Shown here piece by piece: positions 3 through 64,000 of a DNA stretch of 64,000 bases (its first letter is position 1; every line of letters starts with the position of its first letter). The position numbers and the translations under genes were made by a program. Source of the DNA: Bacteroidales bacterium (GTDB lineage Bacteria > Bacteroidota > Bacteroidia > Bacteroidales > P3); the NCBI GenBank assembly GCA_031551725.1, contig JAVBNF010000002.1, positions 2,296-66,295 on the forward strand, written 5' to 3'. The notes below the pieces were generated by a model. The model was not told the DNA's origin, searched no databases, and was given only the letters and a program-made list of their open reading frames with translations.

Positions 3-3000
3 AACGAATGGTACATCTCAGTTTTGTCCAAATATGCCGGAAGATATGCCGCTTATATTTCCAATACAAGCGACAATACAAATACCTACGATGCCTCGGT
101 ACGTACGGTTTCGCACTTGTATCGCGATATCTCTTTACCCGATGGGCATAATCATTTTGTACTGAAATTTTATTGGAAATCAAACGGCTCTACATCCGCA
201 AACTTGAAAGTGTATGCGGTCGAAACTACCGTTGTGCCTGTATCCGGCGTATTGCCGGCATCAGCTGCACTTGGAACTTTTATGCTGTCGGAAAACCAGT
301 GGAAATACGATTCGGTGATACTTCCGGCGAAAGCAAATCAGAATTTCCGGCTTGTATTTACCTGGGACAACGATATAGCCGCTGCTAATCAGCCTCCTGT
401 TACGATTGATAATTTAACAATTACTGCAAGTTGCGCGGCGCCCGTTTCCGAATATCCATACGCTAAACTTATTGAAGCGACAGAAATTGATTTGGCATGG
501 CAAGCCGGCGGCACCGAGTCGGCGTGGGAATTGGCAATGAATGAGGTTTATAAATTCAACCCCAATGATGTCGCTCCGGTTGCCGTTGCAGATTCCCATT
601 TTCGTGTTTTGGCTCCCGGTTATGTGCAGGCCTATTATGTGCGTGCAGTTTGTGGAAACGCGACTTACAGCTCATGGGCAGGTCCGTACATTGTTCCTTC
701 TCCCGTGCCGTTCTTCGAAGATTTTGAAAAAGAAAACGGTTGGTATATTTCCAATAAAGGTTCCGATAATAAATGGATCATTGGCAGTGTTGCCGTTAAG
801 AGCGGCAATGCGTCGGCATACATTTCCAAAGACGATGGTAGTACGAATTCGTATGATGTAACGGACATCAGCGGAGATTATCTGTATCGCGATTTCTTTA
901 TAAAAGGCGGTACGCAAACCGTTCTGAATTTCGACTGGCGTTCGATGGGAACCTGTCCCGGCGCAACCTTGAATGTATATGCGTTGAGTACCGATGTTGA
1001 TATCGAAAACGATTTCTTTTCTGCACTTTCGCCTGCAAATGCGTTGGAATCTTATTCGCTTCAAAATACATGGCAGAACGCAACGGTTAATCTGCCTGTA
1101 TATACGGTAGATACGGTGATACGGCTTGCATTTGAATGGCAGGTTGATATTTTTGGCGGCGCCATAGCTGTAAATCCTCCGGCAGCGGTGGATAATATTC
1201 GATTGCTTCGTTCGCCTGCGCCTGCGCCACGGGCATTTACGGTTTATACACAAGGGATAGATGCTTTTAAGTTAAAGTGGAGCCCTTTTGGAAGTGAGCA
1301 GTTGTGGAAAATAAAATATGCACAAGCTGTTGATTTCGATCCGAATACATCGGGTATTTTTGTTTCTACAACCCAGCCGGAAGTGAATATAACGGGAGTG
1401 ACAACCACTGCTGTTTATGCATTCTATGTGAAAACGTTCAATACTACAGGCGATTCCAACGAATGGGTAGGACCTTATCACAATATCGAAAATTTCGCGA
1501 ACGGCATTTCGGTCGATTGGGAAGCGAGAAACGGTTGTCAACTCAATCGCTGGGAACTGGGAACAGCCGCCGCGTATGTGGATAATTCCAAAACCCTTTA
1601 TATCTCGAGCGATGATGGAGTATCGAATGATTATATACAAGGTCAGACTTCGGTTGTCCATTTTTGCAAAGAAATTATGCTGCAGGCCAAGCAAAAGGCT
1701 GCCAAGATTGAGTTTGATTTGAATATGCAGGAAGAATGTGAGAAGGAATTTTATTTGCGTATATACTTGGTAGATCCGAATATCAAACCTCGTCCGGGAA
1801 CTTCGTTGAGGTATTATGCCGGTGCCCAAATGATTGGAGAGTACAGTATTTCGAATGGATATTTTATAACGAAAACGATTAACCTGCCCGATGTTTTGAA
1901 AGATGTATCCAAGCGATTGGTGTTTTCATTTGAACAGCGTTTTTCGATATGGCCGGTAACTACGGCAACCGTTCCGCCGGCAATCAACAATATCCGCATA
2001 TTGTCCGATGTTTTACCCATTCCTCAAGCCTTGACAGCTTTTCAAACAAGTCCTACATCCGCATTTTTGGAATGGGAAGCAGGATTGAATGAAACAAGTT
2101 GGACCATTGCTTTCGCTGAAGGAATTCAGACAGCCGCTGTAGGATCGAAAATTTCGGTAAACACTCAAAATCGTATTATTTCCATTGATGGAACAAAGAA
2201 TTACACCTTCTGGGTGAGTGCGAATGATGCTGCCGGAAATTCGCTCGAGCGTTACAATGGACCGTTTTTCTTGAATGAAACATTTGAACTGGATGCATTC
2301 AACTTTTCGAAGTTAAGTTTATGGAAAATAAATAATGGTTGTCAAACAAACCAATTTTACCATAGCGACGTTGTTCACCCTCTCGGTGGAAGCGGATATT
2401 CGGTTTATATATCCAATCACGATGGAAATACATATAGCTATGACAGCAGTGCGGCATCGCGAGTTTATATGTCGAGAGATGTGATGTTTCCGGAAGGTTT
2501 TCAGAAAGTGCAATTAACGTTTGATGTAAGAATAAAAGGAGACTGCAGCAGCGATTATCTCGCAGTTTATGCAACAGATCCGGACGATTATGTATTTCCG
2601 GGCACTTGGTTTCTGCCGGATGATAAATATTTACTAAAAAAAATCAGCGACCCTAATGGCATTTCGGGTACAATTGTTATTGATATTCCTAAAGAATTTG
2701 TTGGTAAAAAACGATTGGCATTTGCATGGATCAACGGCCCGGGATTGGCGCACGGAAATCCACCCGCTGCCATTGATAATATCCGCCTAACGGCATCCAA
2801 TATTGTTTATCCGGAACATCTAACTGTTTATCGCGAACGCAATACAGCCCTTAACGACGGCTTTATTGCAAGTTGGGAAAAAATTAAAGATGCCAAGTAT
2901 TATGTTTTGAGTTATGGTGGAAATACGGTGAATGTATATGGAACAGACACCGTTATCCGCATGAATTTAACCGGATTAAATCCTGTTTTTAAAATTCAAA

Positions 3001-6000
3001 CCGTTTACCAAACTAACACGAGCGATTGGTCGCCCGCTGTGAAATTAATTCATGATTTTGAAACGGATGTGGATGCTTGGAAATTGATTAATGAATGCGG
3101 AAATCGTTGGGTAATTGGGGCGAAAGCGACGGCTACGAAAGCGGCTTATATTGCACCTTATGGCAAAGATACAAACGATTACCTGTTTCCGACAAGTTTG
3201 GCATACTTGGCCTTGCCGGTATCATTTCCCACCCATGCCGCATCTTGTCAAATGATTTTTGATTGGCGTTCCTTGGGAGATTATTGCGATTATATGAAGT
3301 TCTTTATTTCCGATGCGTTGCCGAAAGCAGGAGTGGAGATCAATACTTCTTTTACGGATATCCGTTATCGTTTCAAAGATACATGGCAAACCGATACGTT
3401 TAATTTCGATCCATCGTATATAGGAAAGACGGCATATTTAATTTTTGAATGGAGCAATTCTTTTGGGACTGTGAAAAGTCCGCCGATTGCCCTTGATAAT
3501 ATTCGCTTTCAAGCCTCTTCGTGTGGTGCCGCACCAAGAGCGATCACTCCATTTCATCGCGGAAACAATAGTGTCGTTTTAGATTGGACAAACAACGGCC
3601 GAGATACGGCCTGGGATATTTTTTATGGAAGAAAAGGGGATGATATTTCATCTTTTACAACGATTCATACAAAAACAAAGCCTGCCGTTTTTACAATTAC
3701 TTCCGGGATTTCGTACGAACTTTATATGCAGGCATATTACCAAGATGGCTGTAAAAGTGAGCTTTCTCAAGCTGTTTCTTTGGATGAAAACTTCGATCAT
3801 GCCAGCGTTCGTAACTGGAATTTTGTAAATGGAACGCAGCCTAATCAATGGTTTGTCGGTGATGTTGCCGGTCCTGCAAATAATCCTGCGGCATATATTT
3901 CTGCACATTGTGGTGCCGATTATTATAGTTTTGGAGCAAGTCAAACATATTTTTATCGAGATATTACAATTCCTAACGGCTACAGGAAAGTGAAAGTTTC
4001 ATTCGAATGGAAAAATAAAGGCAGTAAAGATGATTATATGCAGGTGGCTTTGGGATATCCTTCGCAAATGCCTGTTCCCGGAGAATATTACCCGGGTGTG
4101 GCCATCCCTGATGCTGCTACCTATTTTTTCGGTGCCGATTGTTGGACATCGGCCTCTGTTGATGTGCCTTCATTTTTTTATGGAAAAACCGCACGCTTGG
4201 TGTTTTCATACAAAACAGTGGGGCTGGGAGTAAGTTCCCCGGCAGCCATTGACAGCATTAGCTTTAGTGTCGATAACTATCCTGCGCCGATAGCGATGAG
4301 TGCATTTTCTAAAACCGACACATCGGCCTTGCTTTCTTGGGCCGCGTTTGGAAATGAAATACGGTGGAAAGTAAAATATGCACCAAGAATGTTTTTACCA
4401 AATGAAACGATAGGCGTAGATTCAATAACGGTTACCGAGAATATGTGTGCAATCTCTCTAAAAACAACGGGCGATTACCATTACTATGTACAGGCAGATT
4501 ATGGAATAGGAGGCTGGAGTACATGGGCAGGGCCTTTCGAATTTAAGGAAACATTTGAAACGGCAAGTGCTGCGCAATGGCATGCGGTAAATGCTTGCGA
4601 AACAAGTCAATGGGTGCTTGGAACTGCTGCCGGTGGAGATGGCAAAACGGCTTACATTTCGAAAGACAATGGAACTACAAATACATACGATAATACCCAA
4701 AAATCCATCGTTTATTTTTATCGCGATATTTATCTTCCGCGCGGATACCAGCATGCATTTATGATGTTCGATTGGAGATCTATGGGGCAAACGGGAGATG
4801 AACTGCAAGTCTATTTGCAAAATATAAACTCTGTACCTGTACCCGGTACAGAGCCTTCCGGAAAACTATTGGGAATATTCTCCGGTTCTTCGCAATGGAA
4901 ATCACAACGTGTGAATTTCGGTATGGATGCAAGCGGTCCCGTCCATTTGCTTTTTGTTTGGAAAAATAAAGTAAGTGCAAGTGCACAGCAACCACCCGTG
5001 GCGATTGATAATATTCAATTTTTCTTGCGTTGTGTTCCGCCTAATGAAATTACAGTTGACCCTACGGTAACGAAAGACCTCGTGAGTGTTATGACCTGGC
5101 AGCAGGGCGAAAGCGAAACCCGTTGGCAAGTGCAATATGGTCCGCAAGGCTTTAATTTGGGCAATGGAACAATTCATAACGTTTCGATTTTGACGGATAC
5201 GTTGAAAAATCTTCAACAAGATGGTTATTATGATACCTATATCCATTCTGTTTGTTCGGAGGTTTCTTTTAGTGATACTGCCGGTCCATATACTTTCCGT
5301 GCACCCGCATTTATCGACATATCCGATAAACTGTCGAACCCGGTGAGTAAACTTGATGGAGCCTCTGCATTATGGATGGATTATGATAATGATAATTTAC
5401 TTGATGTATTTATAAGCGGTTACGATACGGTTATGAAAAAGCCGCGAATGTTTGTATATAAAAACGCTGTTACAGGAAATTTAATTGCTCAAAATGCCGA
5501 ATTTATGGGCTTCGACACGGTATTGGCGTATGGAACATTGAATGCAGTTGATTTCGATAACGACGGAAATATTGACATCTTAATGACCGGAAGTAAAACA
5601 CAGTCGACTGCCGGAGCAGCTGCCTTCCTTTATAAAAACAATGGAGACGGAACGTTTTTGAAATCCTTCATACAGCTTCCTGCTGTTTGGAAAAGTACCG
5701 TCGCTGTCGGCGATTTTAATAACGATGGTTTTCCGGATATTTTGATTGCCGGACAAACACCTAACGGAACTTCGATTACCAAATTATATAAAAATAAAAA
5801 CGGAAAATCACTTCTCGAAAATACAACTGCCTTCCCCTTATTAAATGAAGGAGCAGTGGCTTTCGCTGATTTGCAGAGAAGTGGAGTTTTGGATATTGTT
5901 GTTTCCGGACATTCTGCTTCGAAAATACAGGTGTTTTCCAACAATAAAAACGAAACTTTTACTATTAAATCCATTGACATCCCAAATATGAAACGCAGTG

Positions 6001-8231
6001 CAATTGCTGTTGGCGATGTTGATAACGACGGCTTGCTCGATATTGCTGTCGCCGGAGAGCGTTCTGCCGGAACTTCATCAGCATCCATGTTAATGGTCTA
6101 TAAAAACGGTGGGAATCTGAATTTTACCAATATATACAGTCTCCAAGAATATTGGCGGTCGGGAACCGTCGCTTTCGCAGATTATGATAACGACGGATTT
6201 CAGGATTTGATTTATTCAGGTATTTCCGCTGCCAATCAGTATGAAGCAAAAGTGTTGCAAAATACAAAAACATCATCATTTACACAAGCATCCATTTTTA
6301 AAACCGCAAAAAATCCGAAAATTTATTTTTGTGATTATGATAAAGACAATCGTATTGATGCTTTCCAAGTCAATGAAACCGGCGGATTTTTATATCGAAA
6401 TAAAATAGATGCAGTCAATACAACTCCTCCAAAACCCACAGAATTACGATCGGTAATTGATACTTGCGGCATTACTCCCGATGGACGAACTCCTTGCAGC
6501 GTTGTGCATTTTTATTGGACAAAACAAAACGATGTATTGTCAGGAGTGAATGGAACAACATGTAATATTCGCATATCCGACAATCGGAATACCGTTAATT
6601 TGCGTGCTCCACAAGCCGAAATCCAAGTAATCGACAACGGTTATAAGCGTACGGTTTCACAAGGTGAAATTATTGGAAACACTTGGTCGTATGCCGCATG
6701 CCTATTGGGAGGAACTTATTATTGGAATGTGCAGGCGATTGATGGAAGTATCGAAGGTAGTCCGTTTTCCGATATTGATTCTATTGTAATTCCCAATGTC
6801 TACGCCCAAGCAATGAACGACACCGTTATTTGTTCCGGCGATTCGCTTATGCTATATATGATTGCGGCACAAGAAACGCCCACGTGGTCGGACGGCACAA
6901 AAACATGGGTGCAACCAACTCTCGCGGTATTGCCTAAGCCCGATACATCGTATTACTACGTAAGTGTTCCCGCTCTTTGCGGATTATACAAAGACACTGT
7001 CATGGTGTATGCAAAAAACTGCGATTTGCCGTTTGTGCAATATACGCTTTCGGGAAAAGATACACTGTGTTATTTGGAAACGAACACTATCACGCTCAGC
7101 GGCTCCGAAGAACAAACCTATTACCAACTCTATTTGAATGGCGATACGCTTGGTACGCAAGTTTTGGGCGATGGGAATCCGATTATATGGAGATATACGA
7201 AGCCCGGCGAATATACCGTTGAGGTCTATAGACATAAACGTTTTGAATTTCTGCAAACAAAATTAAAGGTGGTTGTTGATTCAATGCCAATGCTCATTCT
7301 GCCGGGAGATACTACCGTTTGCCAGTATCAAATAGTGAATGCACAGCCTTTCATCTACAATGGAAAATTAGATCCGGCGTTTAATCAATTGGCCTTTCGT
7401 GTTGAACACGATACAACACTTACTGTTACGGCTTCAAATACCTGCGGTCAAGCCAAAGACAGCATTAAAATTATGACACTGCCTGCACCTTATTTTACCT
7501 TTGTCGGCGACACCGCAATTTGTAAAAACGACACCTTGTATTTGAGTATTAATTGTGATGATGCCGCGGCTACTGTTGTTTGGAATACCGGCGAAACAAC
7601 AAAAAATATTCAGAAGCGGATGACGACTTCGCAAAATTTTATTGCAACCACCTATTCGTCAACCAATCAATGCAGCTATACCGATACATTCTCCGTTAGA
7701 GTGGAAAGTATAACAGCACAGTTGGACTATCAGCCCGACCGCATTTATATTGAAGATCCTACCGTTCATTTTGTCGATAGTTCGCAGGGAGCTGTTAAGC
7801 ACTCATGGAAATTTAGCGACGGATATACTTCCTCTGCCGCATCGTTCGACCATACATTCGATTTGTCGTCGGATACCGTTTTAGTGCTTTTGAAAACAAC
7901 TTCCGCGTTTGGCTGTACGGATTCTATTATACAATTATTGCTTGTCGAGTATGGTGTGCGTATTTATGCTCCAACTGCATTTACTCCGAATGGAGACGGA
8001 TTAAACGATGAATTTTATTTGATGATTCCCAATGTTGAAACCATTGAATGGTACGTATTTACACGCTGGGGCGAAAAAATATTTTCTGCCGATAACATTC
8101 AAGCGCGTTGGGATGGCTACTATTCCGGAAAACGCATGCCGCCGGGCGTTTATACGTGGAAAGCAAAATTTAAAGTAGAGAAAAACTCCGAGATTCATAC
8201 TGCTACCGGCTTTGTAACAATTGTTGAATAA
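3..8231 (+). CDS. Giant secreted multidomain surface/adhesin-like protein, 5' end outside window. It has at least 7 repeated beta-sandwich modules alternating with Fn3-like modules, an FG-GAP/VCBS repeat block, Ig-like repeats and a C-terminal T9SS type-B sorting domain
   Basis: The ORF is open to the window edge (frame from nt 3). A module ending motif recurs 7 times: PPVTIDNL, PPAAVDNIRL, VPPAINNIRIL, PPAAIDNIRL, PPIALDNIRF, SPAAIDSISF, PPVAIDNIQF. FG-GAP-like DxDNDGxxDI repeats are present (DFDNDGNIDIL, GDFNNDGFPDIL, GDVDNDGLLDIAV, ADYDNDGFQDLIY). The C-terminus PTAFTPNGDGLNDEFYL...GVYTWKAKF matches the gliding-motility/T9SS type-B CTD. Confidence 0.85.
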   Translation, partial: NEWYISVLSKYAGRYAAYISNTSDNTNTYDASVRTVSHLYRDISLPDGHNHFVLKFYWKSNGSTSANLKVYAVETTVVPVSGVLPASAALGTFMLSENQWKYDSVILPAKANQNFRLVFTWDNDIAAANQPPVTIDNLTITASCAAPVSEYPYAKLIEATEIDLAWQAGGTESAWELAMNEVYKFNPNDVAPVAVADSHFRVLAPGYVQAYYVRAVCGNATYSSWAGPYIVPSPVPFFEDFEKENGWYISNKGSDNKWIIGSVAVKSGNASAYISKDDGSTNSYDVTDISGDYLYRDFFIKGGTQTVLNFDWRSMGTCPGATLNVYALSTDVDIENDFFSALSPANALESYSLQNTWQNATVNLPVYTVDTVIRLAFEWQVDIFGGAIAVNPPAAVDNIRLLRSPAPAPRAFTVYTQGIDAFKLKWSPFGSEQLWKIKYAQAVDFDPNTSGIFVSTTQPEVNITGVTTTAVYAFYVKTFNTTGDSNEWVGPYHNIENFANGISVDWEARNGCQLNRWELGTAAAYVDNSKTLYISSDDGVSNDYIQGQTSVVHFCKEIMLQAKQKAAKIEFDLNMQEECEKEFYLRIYLVDPNIKPRPGTSLRYYAGAQMIGEYSISNGYFITKTINLPDVLKDVSKRLVFSFEQRFSIWPVTTATVPPAINNIRILSDVLPIPQALTAFQTSPTSAFLEWEAGLNETSWTIAFAEGIQTAAVGSKISVNTQNRIISIDGTKNYTFWVSANDAAGNSLERYNGPFFLNETFELDAFNFSKLSLWKINNGCQTNQFYHSDVVHPLGGSGYSVYISNHDGNTYSYDSSAASRVYMSRDVMFPEGFQKVQLTFDVRIKGDCSSDYLAVYATDPDDYVFPGTWFLPDDKYLLKKISDPNGISGTIVIDIPKEFVGKKRLAFAWINGPGLAHGNPPAAIDNIRLTASNIVYPEHLTVYRERNTALNDGFIASWEKIKDAKYYVLSYGGNTVNVYGTDTVIRMNLTGLNPVFKIQTVYQTNTSDWSPAVKLIHDFETDVDAWKLINECGNRWVIGAKATATKAAYIAPYGKDTNDYLFPTSLAYLALPVSFPTHAASCQMIFDWRSLGDYCDYMKFFISDALPKAGVEINTSFTDIRYRFKDTWQTDTFNFDPSYIGKTAYLIFEWSNSFGTVKSPPIALDNIRFQASSCGAAPRAITPFHRGNNSVVLDWTNNGRDTAWDIFYGRKGDDISSFTTIHTKTKPAVFTITSGISYELYMQAYYQDGCKSELSQAVSLDENFDHASVRNWNFVNGTQPNQWFVGDVAGPANNPAAYISAHCGADYYSFGASQTYFYRDITIPNGYRKVKVSFEWKNKGSKDDYMQVALGYPSQMPVPGEYYPGVAIPDAATYFFGADCWTSASVDVPSFFYGKTARLVFSYKTVGLGVSSPAAIDSISFSVDNYPAPIAMSAFSKTDTSALLSWAAFGNEIRWKVKYAPRMFLPNETIGVDSITVTENMCAISLKTTGDYHYYVQADYGIGGWSTWAGPFEFKETFETASAAQWHAVNACETSQWVLGTAAGGDGKTAYISKDNGTTNTYDNTQKSIVYFYRDIYLPRGYQHAFMMFDWRSMGQTGDELQVYLQNINSVPVPGTEPSGKLLGIFSGSSQWKSQRVNFGMDASGPVHLLFVWKNKVSASAQQPPVAIDNIQFFLRCVPPNEITVDPTVTKDLVSVMTWQQGESETRWQVQYGPQGFNLGNGTIHNVSILTDTLKNLQQDGYYDTYIHSVCSEVSFSDTAGPYTFRAPAFIDISDKLSNPVSKLDGASALWMDYDNDNLLDVFISGYDTVMKKPRMFVYKNAVTGNLIAQNAEFMGFDTVLAYGTLNAVDFDNDGNIDILMTGSKTQSTAGAAAFLYKNNGDGTFLKSFIQLPAVWKSTVAVGDFNNDGFPDILIAGQTPNGTSITKLYKNKNGKSLLENTTAFPLLNEGAVAFADLQRSGVLDIVVSGHSASKIQVFSNNKNETFTIKSIDIPNMKRSAIAVGDVDNDGLLDIAVAGERSAGTSSASMLMVYKNGGNLNFTNIYSLQEYWRSGTVAFADYDNDGFQDLIYSGISAANQYEAKVLQNTKTSSFTQASIFKTAKNPKIYFCDYDKDNRIDAFQVNETGGFLYRNKIDAVNTTPPKPTELRSVIDTCGITPDGRTPCSVVHFYWTKQNDVLSGVNGTTCNIRISDNRNTVNLRAPQAEIQVIDNGYKRTVSQGEIIGNTWSYAACLLGGTYYWNVQAIDGSIEGSPFSDIDSIVIPNVYAQAMNDTVICSGDSLMLYMIAAQETPTWSDGTKTWVQPTLAVLPKPDTSYYYVSVPALCGLYKDTVMVYAKNCDLPFVQYTLSGKDTLCYLETNTITLSGSEEQTYYQLYLNGDTLGTQVLGDGNPIIWRYTKPGEYTVEVYRHKRFEFLQTKLKVVVDSMPMLILPGDTTVCQYQIVNAQPFIYNGKLDPAFNQLAFRVEHDTTLTVTASNTCGQAKDSIKIMTLPAPYFTFVGDTAICKNDTLYLSINCDDAAATVVWNTGETTKNIQKRMTTSQNFIATTYSSTNQCSYTDTFSVRVESITAQLDYQPDRIYIEDPTVHFVDSSQGAVKHSWKFSDGYTSSAASFDHTFDLSSDTVLVLLKTTSAFGCTDSIIQLLLVEYGVRIYAPTAFTPNGDGLNDEFYLMIPNVETIEWYVFTRWGEKIFSADNIQARWDGYYSGKRMPPGVYTWKAKFKVEKNSEIHTATGFVTIVE

Positions 8232-26286: not shown

Positions 26287-26380
26287 TTTTAAGAATATGT
26301 TTTGTTAATAACTTTCACAACGAAAAATAAATAATTTGCCACCCCATCGCGTTTATATATATACTAAAATTTATTTCGCT

Positions 26381-27010
26381 ATGGAATTACAAATTATTCA
26401 AAACAAAATTTATGAGCTCCGCGGAGAACGTGTGATGCTCGATTATGATCTCGCTCAACTTTATGAAATTGAAACAAAACGTCTGAAAGAAGCTGTTCGT
26501 CGAAATGTTGATCGCTTCCCGTCCGACTTTATGTTTGAGCTATCAAAAGAAGAATTGGCAGATTTAAAATCTCAAAATGTAAATGATTCGAAATCAGCAA
26601 ACTGTTTGAGGATGCAATTTGCGTCCTCAAACAGTTTGCTGGAGGTCAGCGAGTTAGAAAACGGAGATTTAAACCTCTTGATTAATGCCCAACTACTATC
26701 AAAAGGAAGAGGCGGAATCCGTTATCATCCGTTTGCTTTTACCGAACAAGGAGTGGCAATGCTTGCCAGAGTGTTAAATAGTTCTAAAGCAATAGAAGTC
26801 AATATCTCAATTGTTCGTGCTTTTGTTGCTTTACGCAGATACGCCGTGGATTACGCCGATTTAAATTTGAAGTTGGAGAAATTTATGTCAGACACAAATC
26901 TTCAAATTGATGATATTTATCAAGTTTTGAAGGAATTAACAAATAGAAAGAAGCCGGAACAGAAGCCTCGTAATCCGGTCGGCTATCTCTATCCTAACAA
27001 AAAGCCTTAG
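26381..27010 (+). CDS. ORF6N domain protein (KilA-N-related DNA-binding) with an internal hairpin-encoded insertion
   Basis: IQNKIYELRGERVMLDYDLAQLYEIETKRLKEAVRRNVDRFPSDFMFEL and PFAFTEQGVAMLARVLNS match the ORF6N family. Confidence 0.8.
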   Translation: MELQIIQNKIYELRGERVMLDYDLAQLYEIETKRLKEAVRRNVDRFPSDFMFELSKEELADLKSQNVNDSKSANCLRMQFASSNSLLEVSELENGDLNLLINAQLLSKGRGGIRYHPFAFTEQGVAMLARVLNSSKAIEVNISIVRAFVALRRYAVDYADLNLKLEKFMSDTNLQIDDIYQVLKELTNRKKPEQKPRNPVGYLYPNKKP

Positions 27011-58972: not shown

Positions 58973-59971
58973 ATGAAGAAAATTTTAGTATTTATCGTTG
59001 CGTTGAGCGCATTTGCATGTGGGCATAAGCAAGAAATGACGGCGATTGACGGCACAGCACTCGGCACTTATTATTCGATAAAATATTTTGATAATGAAAA
59101 TCGCAATTTTCAACCGCAAATAGATTCGTTGTTTCATGCATTCAATCAATCGGTTTCCTTGTGGGAAAAGGGCTCTGTTATTAATCGTGTGAATGATAAC
59201 GAAGATGTGGAATTGGACGCGTTTTTCATTGATATTTTTAATAAATCGCAAGAAATTTCGGCCATTACCGATGGCGCTTTTGATGTTACGGTTGGCGCTT
59301 TGGTACGTGTTTATGGTTTCGGAAATGCCGAGCGTTCGCCTGAAGAAATCCGTAAAATCGATAGTTTGTTAATGTATGTAAACTATAAAAATGTTCATAT
59401 CGAAGACAAGCATTTATATAAATTTCATAAAAACACACAGCTCGATTTCAATGCCATTGCTAAAGGTTATTGCGTGGATTTAGTTGGCAGATTTTTGCAA
59501 GAGCGTGGGGTTGAAAATTATTTGGTGGATATTGGCGGTGAGGTATTAGCCAAAGGTATTAAGCCCAATGGCGATTTGTGGATTATCGGTATCGAAAAGC
59601 CGGCCGAAAATGCAGCAGCCGAACAGCAAGTTCAACAACGTTTATCACTCACCGATTGCGCTGTTGCAACATCCGGCAATTATCGTAAATACTATGAGTT
59701 CGAAGGTCGGCGTTATGCTCATTGCATCAGTCCGAAAACGGGAGAACCGGTGCGTCATAATGTACTAAGCGTAACTGTTCTTGCTAAAGAATGCTGGCGC
59801 GCAGATGCTTATGCGACAGCCTTTTTGGTAATGGGGTTAAATGAATCTTTGAAAATATTGGAACAACACCCGGAGCTTGGAGCTTATTTTATCTATGCCG
59901 ATGATCAAAAAGGCAGACAGCAGTATTCAACGTATGCAACGGAGAATCTGAAAGCGTTGGAGATGGAGTAG
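58973..59971 (+). CDS. apbE: FAD:protein FMN transferase ApbE (lipoprotein)
   Basis: Lipobox ALSAFAC; AKGY.VD; VATSGNYRKY. Confidence 0.85.
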   Translation: MKKILVFIVALSAFACGHKQEMTAIDGTALGTYYSIKYFDNENRNFQPQIDSLFHAFNQSVSLWEKGSVINRVNDNEDVELDAFFIDIFNKSQEISAITDGAFDVTVGALVRVYGFGNAERSPEEIRKIDSLLMYVNYKNVHIEDKHLYKFHKNTQLDFNAIAKGYCVDLVGRFLQERGVENYLVDIGGEVLAKGIKPNGDLWIIGIEKPAENAAAEQQVQQRLSLTDCAVATSGNYRKYYEFEGRRYAHCISPKTGEPVRHNVLSVTVLAKECWRADAYATAFLVMGLNESLKILEQHPELGAYFIYADDQKGRQQYSTYATENLKALEME

Positions 59972-60005
59972 TTGTGAATTGCTTTCAAATTTGTATCTTT
60001 GTTCC

Positions 60006-60167
60006 TTGAAAATATCAGACCTTGATTTATCTTTCATGAATCGAACGATTTATAGGAGAAAATAGAAAGAAAAAATCAAATCTGAAAGGAACAAGATGAA
60101 ACACAACTAAAGATTTTTTCAAATTAAAAAAGGACGTTTCAATTTTGAGAAACGTCCTTTTGTTTTT
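60006..60167 (+). ncRNA. Candidate ~160-nt sRNA unit (promoter box + imperfect long hairpin + terminator)
   Basis: TATCTTTG box at 59994-60001. Nested pairings TCAGA/TCTGA, TTGATTT/AAATCAA and TCTTTC/GAAAGA. Terminator hairpin at 60129-60160 followed by a T-run. Only 4-9 codon ORFs. Confidence 0.3.
60124..60167. terminator. Bidirectional intrinsic terminator AAAGGACGTTTC-AATTTTGA-GAAACGTCCTTT
   Basis: 12-bp perfect stem flanked by A-run and T-run. Confidence 0.75.
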
Positions 60168-60449
60168 AGAAAAGTTCCAATTGCTGTGGAACATCCGGTA
60201 AATCTTGTTCTTTCTTTCCGTAGAAAAGTTCCATGGAACCGAATTGCTTATCCGTAATACACAATATCCCCACTTGCCCTCGAGGGGGCAACGATTTCTT
60301 GACCCTTTTAGGTGCTTCTTCATCGCGTCCGCGTGTGAAGTTTGATAACTATCTGTTCGTTTTTCAAGCTAAGATAAGCCGGATTGCTGAAAAAGAGGGT
60401 ACGGTTAAGTATCCAATGGTAATAAACGGATTTGTATTCACTTTTTGCA
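60166..60449 (-). pseudogene. Possible degraded gene remnant with an intact promoter box and ATG but three reading-frame pieces
   Basis: TATCTTTG (minus strand) at 60471-60464 and ATG at 60449. MQKVNTNPFITIGYLTVPSF.. (28 codons, stop) is followed by frame-shifted pieces ending ..GILCITDKQFGSMELFYGKKEQDLPDVPQQLELF, just before the terminator. Confidence 0.3.
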
Positions 60450-60688
60450 TGTCTTAATTTTTTACAAAGATAATAAAAATTTCGCAAAATGCGTAATGCA
60501 AAATGAGAAATTTTATAACTTATTAGTAATTAGCATCGCTTATAGGGATTGTTTGTCCAATGTGATTAATTCGTACTTTTATTGGGTTGAGAGCTAATAA
60601 AGAGCCTAAATTTCTTATATTGTAGAATCTCTTAGATTCTTTTGTACCTACTGTATTTTTTAATTCTGTATTCTTTATATTTATGCTT

Positions 60689-61430
60689 ATCTATAATAGT
60701 AGAAATTTAAAGGGTCGTCTTGACTTGTCGGATAATTCCCGAAAGTATCTTCCATCTACAATAGTAGAAATTTAAAGGGTCGTCTTGACCAATTCGACCA
60801 ACATAGGGCGCCCAACATCTACAATAGTAGAAATTTAAAGGGTCGTCTTGACGCAAGCAAGTGACAGGCTCGCAATCAACCATCTACAATAGTAGAAATT
60901 TAAAGGGTCGTCTTGACTATATGAAGCGCTATTATATGAGCCATATCTACAATAGTAGAAATTTAAAGGGTCGTCTTGACTAGATTTAGCCTACAAGGTT
61001 ATGTACGAATCTACAATAGTAGAAATTTAAAGGGTCGTCTTGACGATTTAGATAAGAATTTACGTGTATATTGCATCTACAATAGTAGAAATTTAAAGGG
61101 TCGTCTTGACTTGAAATATGGGAAAATGGTAAACAAAAATCTACAATAGTAGAAATTTAAAGGGTCGTCTTGACTTGAAATATGGGAAAATGGTAAACAA
61201 AAATCTACAATAGTAGAAATTTAAAGGGTCGTCTTGACGTTTCTTAACTCCGTCAATACGGTTGATATCTACAATAGTAGAAATTTAAAGGGTCGTCTTG
61301 ACTTGTTCCATTCGGAAGCTATCAATACGAATCTACAATAGTAGAAATTTAAAGGGTCGTCTTGACACATCGTCGGAATGCAGTAAATCCAGGGATCTAC
61401 AATAGTAGAAATTTAAAGGGTCGTCTTGAC
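60689..61430 (-). CRISPR. Type V-A CRISPR array: 12 x 36-nt repeats, 11 spacers of 27-30 nt (10 unique)
   Basis: Minus-strand repeat is GTCAAGACGACCCTTTAAATTTCTACTATTGTAGAT. Repeats start (plus strand) at 60689, 60754, 60817, 60882, 60945, 61009, 61075, 61139, 61203, 61267, 61331 and 61395. The leader-distal repeat carries one mismatch. Confidence 0.97.
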
Positions 61431-61613
61431 CCCATATGTCCAAAAGGACAGCGCAAAGATATAGATTTTTAATGAATTAAACAAATAGAAGAAATATGAT
61501 TTTTCTCCCACTTGATTCTTCGATTAAATGCAAACAATACGTCAAAGAGCTAAATGCCAGGATGATAATTTATTTATAATGGAGGCTGTTTCGAAAATAA
61601 AGACAGACCCTTG
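61431..61613 (-). promoter_or_regulatory. CRISPR leader with -7 promoter box (TATCTTTG on the minus strand at 61461-61454)
   Basis: AT-rich 183 nt between the cas2 stop and the first repeat. The box lies about 24 nt upstream of that repeat. Confidence 0.55.
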
Positions 61614-61889
61614 TTAATCGAAATAAATCAAATCCTGATCTCGATGAATGGCATTGCCATATTTAAGGGCTGTTTTTTCATCGGTACTGAAAATAAAAAC
61701 ACTGTCGCCTCCGCCAAATTTTTTCGAATAGTAGTTTTCAATTCGGATAATTAAATTGTCTAATATTCGCTTTGAATTATTGAGTTCGAAGACAGAATAC
61801 TGTAAACGAATACCGCCCTGTTTGATCAGTGTTTTGGAAAATTTTGCACGAAGTTTATTGTCCGAAATATCATAACTTACAACTAACAT
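61614..61889 (-). CDS. cas2: CRISPR-associated endoribonuclease Cas2
   Basis: MLVVSYDISDNKLRAKFSK.L...G.RLQYSVFE; adjacent to cas1 and the array. Confidence 0.92.
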   Translation of the reverse strand: MLVVSYDISDNKLRAKFSKTLIKQGGIRLQYSVFELNNSKRILDNLIIRIENYYSKKFGGGDSVFIFSTDEKTALKYGNAIHRDQDLIYFD

Positions 61890-61901
61890 AATTTTACAAA
61901 T

Positions 61902-62870
61902 TTAAATTAAAAACATTGGATAATCAGGAGCACTTTTGCGTCCCATAAAACAACGATAATATTGTTGCATGTATTTGAAAACATCAGATTTATGAGCGAT
62001 CAGTACATCATAAAACATTTTGGTATAAACACTGTTCTTTTCTCGCTTCAAAATATATTCATTTTTAATTAGCAAAAAATCTTCTTTTGTACATTGTTTG
62101 GTGTTGAATGCCTTACGCACTTGTGTGTCAATCAGGCAACGGAATGGTTCCATCAAATCGCAAATCAAGGATTTACGTTTGAACCACAATCGGTGGTAAA
62201 CGCCCACATACGGATCAAATCCGAATAAGCGGGTAAACGCCTCTATATAATTGAATAAAATGGTATAACCAATGTCCAAAGTGGCATTAACCGGATCGAT
62301 TTTGGTTCGTGGACTGCGCAATTTCCAATCGTGCTGTTCGAAGTAGGAAGCAAAAAAAGCTTTGGCAACTCCTCCTTCCAATCCCATTAAACTATCATAA
62401 TCATCAACAGTTGGTACGATTGACAAGTAGTTTATACATTTCTCTTTGGCTTCGGTTATTCGAGGCGATTTCATTCTTGTTTTTTCAAGCAACCGCAGTT
62501 GGTTACGAATTTTATTCTCTACCAATATCCGGGCTATTCGTAATTCTGTTTTCGGATATTCGTACTGCTTTTGGCGTAACAGATAATTGGCTTCGGCGGT
62601 AATGGAATAGAAAAAAACCGGACGAAAATTGGGCTTCATTACAACAATCGGAATACCATGCAATCGACATTTGTCGATCAAGGCGGTAGTAACTGTAATA
62701 TGTCCAATGACAAACAATGCCAATATCTTTTGAAAGGGTAGCTTGGTCAATGTTTTATTTTGTTCAACATCTTCCAGCAACAATTCACCGCTATGCACAC
62801 GAAGATTTTTCTCTTCAATGCTGTTGATTACAAAAACAGACCGGTATTCAATATCTTTATGAGTAAACAT
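61902..62870 (-). CDS. cas1: CRISPR-associated endonuclease Cas1
   Basis: 322 aa, positioned between cas4 and cas2. Cas1-like central and C-terminal region (..DPVNATLDIGYTILFN.., ..LMEPFR..). Confidence 0.9.
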   Translation of the reverse strand: MFTHKDIEYRSVFVINSIEEKNLRVHSGELLLEDVEQNKTLTKLPFQKILALFVIGHITVTTALIDKCRLHGIPIVVMKPNFRPVFFYSITAEANYLLRQKQYEYPKTELRIARILVENKIRNQLRLLEKTRMKSPRITEAKEKCINYLSIVPTVDDYDSLMGLEGGVAKAFFASYFEQHDWKLRSPRTKIDPVNATLDIGYTILFNYIEAFTRLFGFDPYVGVYHRLWFKRKSLICDLMEPFRCLIDTQVRKAFNTKQCTKEDFLLIKNEYILKREKNSVYTKMFYDVLIAHKSDVFKYMQQYYRCFMGRKSAPDYPMFLI

Positions 62871-63423
62871 TTTCCGTATTCGTTTTATCGCACAAATTGC
62901 AGTAAATGCAATGCGTGCATTTGTTTGGATTTATTTGAATTTCCTGAGCAGGGTCATACGTTTTGAAACGATGGATAAATTGTTTTAATTCATTTCGTTG
63001 CTCTTCTTCGGGAATTTCTACCGGAAAAGTGCTATTCGTCGAAATAGCATAGAATGCTAAATTTTCTACTTCATAACCCATTTCAACCATGCAGAAATAC
63101 TGCGCCCACAGCTGATAAATCTGTCCTTGATAGATTTTCAGCAGTTTATGTTTGCGTTCAATCAACAGTTTTTCGTTGCCTTTATACAAATCGATTTTCC
63201 CGCAAATACCCAAATCATTGCTATATACGCCAATTCCGGAAATATCGGCTTTGCGGCTGCTGTATTTTTTTTGATCAATCGCTTCATGGCTTGCCGTGCC
63301 TTGCGTTTGAGGTGCAGCCTTTACCAAATCTTCGCCCCCACCCATATACACATTGTGCAGGTAGATGGAATAGGGACAGAAGATAAAGTCGTTCAATTCG
63401 GATATAGGTATGTAGTCGTGCAT
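62857..63423 (-). CDS. cas4: CRISPR-associated exonuclease Cas4
   Basis: N-terminal Cys (FCPYS) plus C-terminal CTHCIYCNLC for an Fe-S cluster. RecB-type motif GKIDL...IERK. Confidence 0.9.
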   Translation of the reverse strand: MHDYIPISELNDFIFCPYSIYLHNVYMGGGEDLVKAAPQTQGTASHEAIDQKKYSSRKADISGIGVYSNDLGICGKIDLYKGNEKLLIERKHKLLKIYQGQIYQLWAQYFCMVEMGYEVENLAFYAISTNSTFPVEIPEEEQRNELKQFIHRFKTYDPAQEIQINPNKCTHCIYCNLCDKTNTENVYS

Positions 63424-63425
63424 GG

Positions 63426-64000
63426 TTATTTATTAGTCTTTTGTACAAACTGCAACCATTCTTTGTTTGGACACCATTGGCTTACTTTCTTCTTTTTCTT
63501 ATCCCCTTTTTCAAATGTTATCTCTTTAGGTTCTTTGAGCCCATTAAATTCAGCAACAGCCTTTTCTTTTTCTTCAGTTTTATCTAATTGCTTTAATAGC
63601 CACAAGCCTTTGCGAGCAATGTTGTAAGCGCCGTTGGCATCGGCATCGACAGGTAGTACCGATTTCCATTTTCCATGCTCAGTCTTCCCTTTTTGTATTT
63701 CCACTTCGCTACTAAAAAATGTATTTGAACCTTTTTTCAATTCAACCGATGAAACAATAGTGTCGTGTTCCATATTATTCTCATCTTTCCATGTATGTCG
63801 TAGTGATAGCAATGCTGAAAGACATTTTAATAATTCTTCAAAAAATGCAGCATCTTGGATATTAATAATAGATTTTTTCAAACAATTACCATTGTTATAA
63901 GCAATATTTTTCTCTTTAAATAAGCGGATCAATTGATCATTAACATTAATTTGTTGCCGTATCCATTTGTTATTTAGCTGCACAGACATTGAACGCTTTG
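63426..64000 (-). CDS. cas12a: Cas12a (Cpf1) C-terminal ~190 aa (Nuc/RuvC-III region); the rest of the gene is beyond the window
   Basis: PVDADANGAYNIARKGLWLLKQL (RuvC-III) and LLSLRHT...DTIVSSV (Nuc region). ORF open to nt 64000. The repeat carries the canonical Cas12a handle. Confidence 0.9.
   Translation of the reverse strand, partial: KRSMSVQLNNKWIRQQINVNDQLIRLFKEKNIAYNNGNCLKKSIINIQDAAFFEELLKCLSALLSLRHTWKDENNMEHDTIVSSVELKKGSNTFFSSEVEIQKGKTEHGKWKSVLPVDADANGAYNIARKGLWLLKQLDKTEEKEKAVAEFNGLKEPKEITFEKGDKKKKKVSQWCPNKEWLQFVQKTNK

Follow-up and report, generated by a model that had tools for sequence, protein, structure and literature searches.

Do the clustered regularly interspaced short palindromic repeats (CRISPR) and cas genes at one end of a 64,000-nt stretch of Bacteroidales DNA form a working type V-A system, and is their Cas12a effector, which is cut by the edge of the stretch, a usual member of its family? 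The stretch, hereafter the window, comes from contig JAVBNF010000002.1 of assembly GCA_031551725.1. The evidence makes it highly probable that the locus is a complete type V-A CRISPR-Cas system of adaptive immunity, probably active and carried on the chromosome of an uncultured Bacteroidales bacterium. The effector is a member of a rare and sparsely sampled clade of long-form Cas12a, and it represents a new orthologue, not a new kind of system.

The list of open reading frames (ORFs), a repeat finder and a reading of the minus strand over 59400-64000 gave the same succession, from the 3′-end of cas12a through cas4, cas1 and cas2 to the leader and the array:

63426-64000, minus strand (codons 63426-63998): 3′-terminal part of cas12a (190 codons and the stop), which encodes RuvC-III, the C-terminal helix and a portion of Nuc
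62857-63423, minus strand: cas4 of the V-A (PREFRAN) type, 188 aa, 2-nt gap from cas12a; TIGR04328, Pfam Cas_Cas4
61902-62870, minus strand: cas1, the V-A integrase, 322 aa, overlapping cas4 by 14 nt; TIGR04329, Pfam Cas_Cas1
61614-61889, minus strand: cas2, 91 aa, 12-nt gap from cas1; Pfam CRISPR_Cas2, TIGR01573
61431-61613, minus strand: leader, 183 nt, A/T-rich
60689-61430, minus strand: CRISPR array, with 11 spacers set between 12 repeats of 36 nt
60689-60724, minus strand: terminal, leader-distal repeat with a single G>A change in the stem (TTATAGAT), marking the old end of the array

Gene order, gaps, overlap, leader and the 12-repeat array thus reproduce, coordinate by coordinate, those of a first-pass annotation made from the sequence alone. 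The same annotation had assigned the locus to the well-known type V-A family, and this assignment is borne out by V-A-specific models of Cas4 and Cas1, as well as by Cas12a domains and alignments. Cas4 matches TIGR04328 (cas4_PREFRAN) over its full length, with 242 bits against a cut-off of 70, and its translation displays the four Fe-S cysteines (C16 and CTHCIYCNLC), the D...ExK motif and the QxxxY motif; Cas1 matches TIGR04329 (cas1_PREFRAN), also over its full length, with 427 bits against a cut-off of 300, and Pfam Cas_Cas1 at 6.8e-54, while Cas2 is recognized by Pfam CRISPR_Cas2 (9.2e-15) and TIGR01573. The V-A (PREFRAN) adaptation module cas4-cas1-cas2 is therefore present, placed between effector and array. 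The Cas12a fragment in the window is matched by Pfam NUC and RuvC_1 and by TIGR04330 (cas_Cpf1) at model positions 1147-1270 of 1288, with a score below the full-length cut-off of that model because only 190 aa are visible.

The effector gene continues past the window edge, and a full-length product, P0174 (1515 aa), was recovered from the window's own contig of 71,894 nt by a search with a full-length relative of 1437 aa (from locus L003). Residues 1326-1515 of P0174 are 100% identical to the 190-aa translation of the window; moreover, the contig listed for the window elongation factor G (EF-G) has this same length. The start codon is computed at about 67973 from the 1515 codons, and the N-terminus, MKNFTNLYSLSKTLRFELKPE, is a canonical Cas12a start. 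The 190-aa fragment as query returned short fragments only, and the full-length relatives came from a search of representative proteins and from the query with the full-length relative; scans of genomes and metagenomes gave only relatives of about 53% identity. Since P0174 is uninterrupted and matches the window part, the cas12a gene is intact; the disruption or absence of the gene, raised by the first-pass annotation as a possible objection, was not found. Near-identity to a characterized Cas12a, raised there as well, was not found either: P0174 is about 35% identical to AsCas12a and 63% identical to the nearest public protein, which is itself an uncharacterized product of a metagenome-assembled genome (MAG), and it has no characterized near-twin.

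P0174 is a single large effector with the domain order of Cas12a, which comprises WED, REC1/REC2, PI, a split RuvC (I-III) with bridge helix, and Nuc. Its precomputed Pfam domains are REC1, cas_Cpf1_2nd, Cpf1_PI-like, RuvC_1 and NUC, and the protein aligns end to end with Cas12a structures (ReChb 1.5e-209, AsCas12a 4e-170, FnCas12a 4e-163); all 26 PDB sequences matched at E<=1e-3 are Cas12a. Functional residues were mapped on a 23-sequence MAFFT alignment anchored on AsCas12a, whose reference sequence was self-consistent in length (1307 aa) and in the expected type of every numbered residue. Contacts with the protospacer-adjacent motif (PAM) and residues processing the precursor CRISPR RNA (pre-crRNA) are included in the correspondences obtained from this alignment:

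RuvC triad: AsCas12a D908/E993/D1263, P0174 D1073/E1172/D1445
Nuc: AsCas12a R1226 and D1235, P0174 R1392 and D1404
pre-crRNA processing: AsCas12a H800/K809/K860, P0174 H960/K969/K1027
PAM contacts: AsCas12a T167, K548, N552, M604 and K607, P0174 T194, K625, N629, M736 and K739
PAM-region position: AsCas12a S542, P0174 G619

R1392, D1404 and D1445 fall inside the window, and the processing residues H960, K969 and K1027 are invariant in the 22 other aligned sequences (22/22). The glycine at G619 is shared with LbCas12a. Judged by this alignment, P0174 keeps every residue known to be needed for Cas12a activity. An AlphaFold2 model of residues 568-1515, built on a 68-sequence alignment, has a mean predicted local distance difference test score (pLDDT) of 83 and a predicted template modelling score of 0.75; with this model as a Foldseek query, all 50 of the matches listed were chains of Cas12a, the lowest E being 2.5e-53 and the highest TM-score 0.72 (AsCas12a).

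These data also bear on the reading of P0174 as a Cas12a2-like nuclease, triggered by RNA and acting through abortive infection, that would share with Cas12a only the repeat. Cas12a2 has the same CRISPR RNA (crRNA) handle and can adjoin the same adaptation genes, which counts in its favor; however, P0174 aligns over its whole length, PAM-interacting (PI) region included, with DNA-targeting Cas12a structures, and no Cas12a2 appears among either the PDB sequences (0/26) or the listed fold matches (0/50). The PAM lysines equivalent to K607 and K548 are both present. Cas12a2 has WED and RuvC regions in common with Cas12a but is devoid of the PI and Nuc regions of the latter, and P0174 departs from it in having a PI region with the K607-equivalent Lys together with a Nuc domain. 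A Cas12a2-like identity is thus exceedingly improbable, and P0174 is treated in what follows as a Cas12a.

What sets P0174 apart is its length. A HMMER scan of 1.84 billion representative proteins with the window fragment showed a step in the scores, with seven proteins below 1e-30 and the bulk of Cas12a at 1e-15 and weaker. The long-form clade comprises about a dozen sequences among 5.8 billion, 1359-1617 aa long, from MAGs of Bacteroidales/Bacteroidetes, Planctomycetaceae, Deltaproteobacteria and Helicobacteraceae. Full-length identity to P0174 is 63% for P0173, 60% for P0175, 64% for P0025 (a fragment), 53% for P0177 and 48% for P0179, versus 31-35% for ordinary Cas12a (about 35% for AsCas12a). 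Viral contigs yielded no relative of the effector, and no evidence of a tested member of the clade was found in the literature; PMC13330018 contains nothing on long forms.

The extra length of P0174 amounts to about 165-200 residues, distributed over roughly eight insertions; their positions in the alignment with ordinary Cas12a are:

residues 136-149
residues 315-323
residues 661-716
residues 759-771
residues 797-809
residues 986-1018, partly shared with AsCas12a
residues 1429-1435
residues 1466-1490

The insertion at 661-716, located at the WED/PI junction, is modelled, at pLDDT 95-97, as a 56-aa hairpin in which two long helices run antiparallel; it is restricted to P0174, P0173 and P0175, plus the P0025 fragment, and a similar insert occurs in the distant P0182. 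Inside the window, a 7-aa insert (GKTEHGK) is visible ahead of DADANG, and a Lys-rich insert lies before the last helix, consisting of 25 aa (TEEKEK...FEKG) followed by DKKKKKVSQWCPNKEW (1466-1490 plus KKKKK). The Lys-rich insert had already been noticed in the first-pass annotation; it is real and clade-wide, with a length varying from 17 to 50 aa. Its interpretation as a simple disordered tail was rejected, as it is modelled as a helix and a small beta-hairpin with pLDDT 70-97.

The first-pass annotation had further proposed, from an atypical Nuc-region motif and the Lys-rich insert, that the protein may be an uncharacterized variant. P0174 is indeed an uncharacterized orthologue from a rare long clade, but the Nuc motif is a weak argument for it, as the motif occurs beyond the clade: LRH[ST] is found in several ordinary-length Cas12a and the catalytic Arg and Asp are retained, so that LSLRHTWKD was discarded as the mark of a special Nuc domain. 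The clade's own signature is instead SSV replacing SPV, together with the C-terminal insert.

Six further proteins (P0171, P0172, P0026, P0176, P0027 and P0178) are 55-64% identical to P0174 only from about residue 826 onward, because the PI segment differs: the equivalent of P0174 residues ~600-826 is not conserved in them, and they carry Arg, Asn or a gap in place of the Lys at the AsCas12a K607 position. The comparison of these sequences suggests exchange of the PI domain, and divergent PAMs, within one long clade.

The variability of the genes around the effector deserves a separate mention. The relatives L002, L003 and L007 have an identical cas4-cas1-cas2 order, and the arrays of L002 and L003 carry the same crRNA handle as the window. 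In three clade relatives an extra gene is found between cas12a and cas4 (L003 4998-5855, L004 4931-5788, L007 12186-13169), coding in L003 and L004 for a Bro-N-domain protein of 285 aa, and in L007 for a member of the RhuM family of 327 aa. This position is empty in the window, with the 2-nt gap only, and this part of the operon resembles a slot for variable cargo.

Could the long-form effector, then, work differently from other Cas12a? The hairpin and the Lys-rich insert might alter PAM specificity or breadth, add a surface binding DNA or a partner, affect DNA binding and unwinding, dock an accessory protein, or favor collateral cleavage, and the clade would in that case form a Cas12a lineage with a function of its own. 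In favor of this, the insertions are specific to the clade and in part structured, as seen in the confidently modelled hairpin and in the C-terminal helix and beta-hairpin; the PI segment of other clade members, devoid of the K607-position Lys, indicates that PAM reading is evolving, and the score gap between the clade and ordinary Cas12a is large. Against this, all PAM-contact, processing and catalytic residues of P0174 are canonical, the fold matches Cas12a throughout, and the handle in the window is the commonest V-A handle; moreover, clade members differ in which insertions they carry and in how long these are (hairpin in three or four members, C-terminal insert of 17-50 aa), which suggests a tolerated decoration and not a new function that is essential. 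Both an effector working by different rules and a functionally distinct clade are accordingly judged unlikely, and the insertions are expected to modulate, not to replace, the canonical mechanism of a Cas12a.

The array itself is built on the repeat GTCAAGACGACCCTTTAAATTTCTACTATTGTAGAT (36 nt), counted in 12 copies by script, 11 of which are identical, with a period of 63-66 nt; a 12-copy array of a 36-mer at this period cannot have arisen by chance. The 3′ 19 nt of the repeat, AAUUUCUACUAUUGUAGAU, are the Cas12a crRNA handle, with the spacer on its 3′ side, and the predicted fold has a 5-bp stem and a 4-nt loop; both sequence and fold agree with what the first-pass annotation had stated on the repeat end. 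The V-A repeat was unmatched in Rfam, both at the gathering score over the whole window and at E<=1 over 59900-61700. No anti-repeat or second handle-like sequence was found elsewhere in the window, the stretch upstream of cas12a lying outside it.

The leader contains a candidate promoter, formed by TTTG at 61482-61485, a 20-nt spacer and TATCTTTG at 61454-61461, which ends 23 nt before repeat 1. The motif fits the published Bacteroides promoter consensus of -33 TTTG and -7 TAnnTTTG; thus, the leader probably holds a promoter of the Bacteroidota type.

On the basis of established Cas12a biology, the following course may be envisaged. The leader promoter would transcribe the array, and Cas12a itself would cut the pre-crRNA upstream of the UCUACU-AUUG-UAGAU stem-loop through H960/K969/K1027, without a trans-activating crRNA (tracrRNA). 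The Cas12a-crRNA complex would then recognize a 5′ T-rich PAM (TTTV or a similar one) on the non-target strand, as expected from the conserved T194, K625, N629, M736 and K739 and from G619 at the S542 position; after R-loop formation, the single RuvC site (D1073/E1172/D1445) would cut both DNA strands, with the assistance of Nuc Arg1392. As in other type V-A systems, the RNA-guided cut in dsDNA would be staggered, and binding of the target would activate a collateral ssDNase. New spacers would enter the array at its leader end, taken by Cas4, Cas1 and Cas2 from prespacers flanked by a PAM.

Each of the 11 spacers measures 27-30 nt, and spacers 4 and 5 are identical (TTTTGTTTACCATTTTCCCATATTTCAA; 61111-61138 and 61175-61202, minus strand), so that only 10 are unique. 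This pair is a duplication of the repeat-spacer unit, more likely generated by slippage or recombination than by two separate acquisitions. No spacer matched the window elsewhere at up to 4 mismatches, thus no self-target was detected there.

Some of these data, and others on the effector, weigh against a complete and probably active locus. The duplicated spacers are not a product of normal acquisition. The comparison of the array with isolate phages and plasmids gave chance-level matches only (E>=0.2) and no protospacer, so that the PAM which the first-pass annotation had hoped to read from such a search was not obtained; likewise, 22-23-nt seeds of spacers 1, 2, 3, 4/5 and 9 found nothing in IMG/VR. 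As no protospacer was found, both PAM and targets can only be deduced. The 5′ 3973 nt of cas12a are known only as a predicted protein, on which the integrity of the gene rests, and the insertions are without a characterized counterpart, so that the behavior of the effector may be changed quantitatively or qualitatively.

The duplicated spacer and the missing protospacers would also be compatible with a decaying or silent relic, horizontally acquired and no longer expressed or acquiring spacers. The base composition points in the same direction: the G+C content of the locus is 33-37%, below the ~40-44% of the surrounding chromosome, and this difference, together with the finding of the nearest relatives in other phyla, points to horizontal acquisition. 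On the other hand, none of the four genes is truncated and their motifs are intact, 11 repeats are identical and the leader has a good promoter motif of the host type, while the lack of protospacer matches is usual for uncultured lineages. The identity of 11 of the 12 repeats, the distal position of the degenerate one and the intact adaptation genes fit a maintained array. A relic is therefore very unlikely, and the locus is best regarded as complete and probably active.

The chromosomal and Bacteroidota nature of the window is indicated by a CHU_C protein of the type IX secretion system (T9SS), TamL, RNase Y, penicillin-binding protein 1 (PBP1), rpsG, fusA and fructose-bisphosphate aldolase. 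The window EF-G is at best 84% identical to proteins of "Bacteroidales bacterium" MAGs, which indicates a host belonging to an unsampled Bacteroidales lineage. Other features of the window, with their positions, are:

24-8231, plus strand: surface protein of 2735 aa that combines MAM, fn3 and FG-GAP repeats with a CHU_C domain for type IX sorting at the C-terminus, a Bacteroidota marker
26336-27007, plus strand: 224-aa ORF6N-domain protein, between a PBP1-type gene and rpsG
59971-60016, plus strand: single 46-nt element, GTTGTGAATTGCTTTCAAATTTGTATCTTTGTTCCTTGAAAATATC, which shares its first base with the end of the apbE stop codon and lies some 670 nt past the distal end of the array
60128-60161: strong 13-bp palindromic hairpin with T-runs on both strands, located between the array's distal end and apbE

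PADLOC, run on 46 ORFs, returned the Cas proteins, generic housekeeping cross-matches and one single-gene candidate, the ORF6N-domain protein (PDC-S05, 1.2e-53), which belongs to an unvalidated family; the view of the CRISPR-Cas locus as the only defence system in the window nearly holds, with this one addition. The hairpin at 60128-60161 is likely a bidirectional terminator insulating the array from apbE.

The match of the 46-nt element to Rfam CRISPR-DR49 falls short of the gathering score (34.6 versus 41 bits, E 0.0018 on 1.8 kb), and the element seems similar to the repeats, of ~47 nt, in type II-C arrays of Bacteroidota. One copy only occurs in the window, and no ORF of the size of cas9 was found there except that of the T9SS surface protein; the element may be what is left, as a last repeat, of a CRISPR locus that formerly stood at this site, or the resemblance may be due to chance.

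A further repeat was found outside Bacteria: the Methanosarcina virus MetMV (L005 601-655; MK170447.1 14830-14884) carries a solitary intergenic repeat of the V-A type, ending in GGACGGATTAAATTTCTACTATTGTAGAT, with a handle identical to that of the window. This repeat may be a solitary repeat unit or an RNA anti-CRISPR directed against a Cas12a host.

The locus adds a divergent Cas12a orthologue with its complete native setting (effector, adaptation genes, leader and array) from an uncultured Bacteroidales lineage. It may serve as an entry point to a poorly sampled long-form clade, in particular for the roles of the PI-adjacent hairpin and of the Lys-rich insert, and it would widen the panel of natural variants of PAM and activity. 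It does not challenge current views of type V-A systems, and the length of 1515 aa makes the enzyme less attractive than existing ones for delivery-limited genome editing.

Among known systems, AsCas12a, FnCas12a and LbCas12a (e.g., 5B43, 5NFV and 5XUS) share with P0174 the domain order, the fold and the catalytic, processing and PAM-contact residues, and their loci share with the window the handle UCUAC-N4-GUAGAU and the cas4-cas1-cas2 module; P0174 differs from them in having only ~31-35% identity and about 200 additional aa, due to the insertions. The best PDB match to P0174, by both sequence and fold, is ReChb (8QWD-8QWF), a protein of 1261 aa that lacks the P0174 insertions. We take ReChb to be a reconstructed ancestral Cas12a, although a literature search on it found no paper; if so, its top rank would reflect a consensus-like reconstruction and not a specific relationship.

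Metagenomic surveys have already reported many Cas12a families. The largest nucleases among them belong to the Cas12a-M57 family (Aliaga Goltsman et al. 2020, PMC7757703), of ~1400 aa and with a 4-nt-loop repeat; like P0174, they are large metagenomic Cas12a with a 4-nt-loop handle, P0174 being ~100 aa longer. Signature peptides of the P0174 clade were not found in the accessible part of the supplementary text of that paper. The distance from effector start to first repeat, ~6.6 kb here, is also within what is known, as loci bearing cas4, cas1 and cas2 and spanning up to 6.7 kb have been described (PMC12375029).

The closest resemblance is with uncharacterized long proteins. P0173, from a Planctomycetaceae MAG (contig JAITKS010000373, 1559 aa), is the nearest public protein, annotated at NCBI as "type V CRISPR-associated protein Cas12a/Cpf1"; together with P0175 (1617 aa) and P0025, it shares with P0174 60-64% identity over the full length, the insertions, among them the 56-aa helical hairpin, the Nuc signature LSLRHTWKD...DTIVSSVE and the Lys-rich C-terminal insert ending in KKKKVSQWCPNKEW, while ~36-40% of the residues and the lengths of the low-complexity inserts differ. 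The hosts of these long relatives belong to Planctomycetota, whereas P0174 is from Bacteroidota, and the occurrence of such close long Cas12a proteins in different phyla indicates horizontal transfer.

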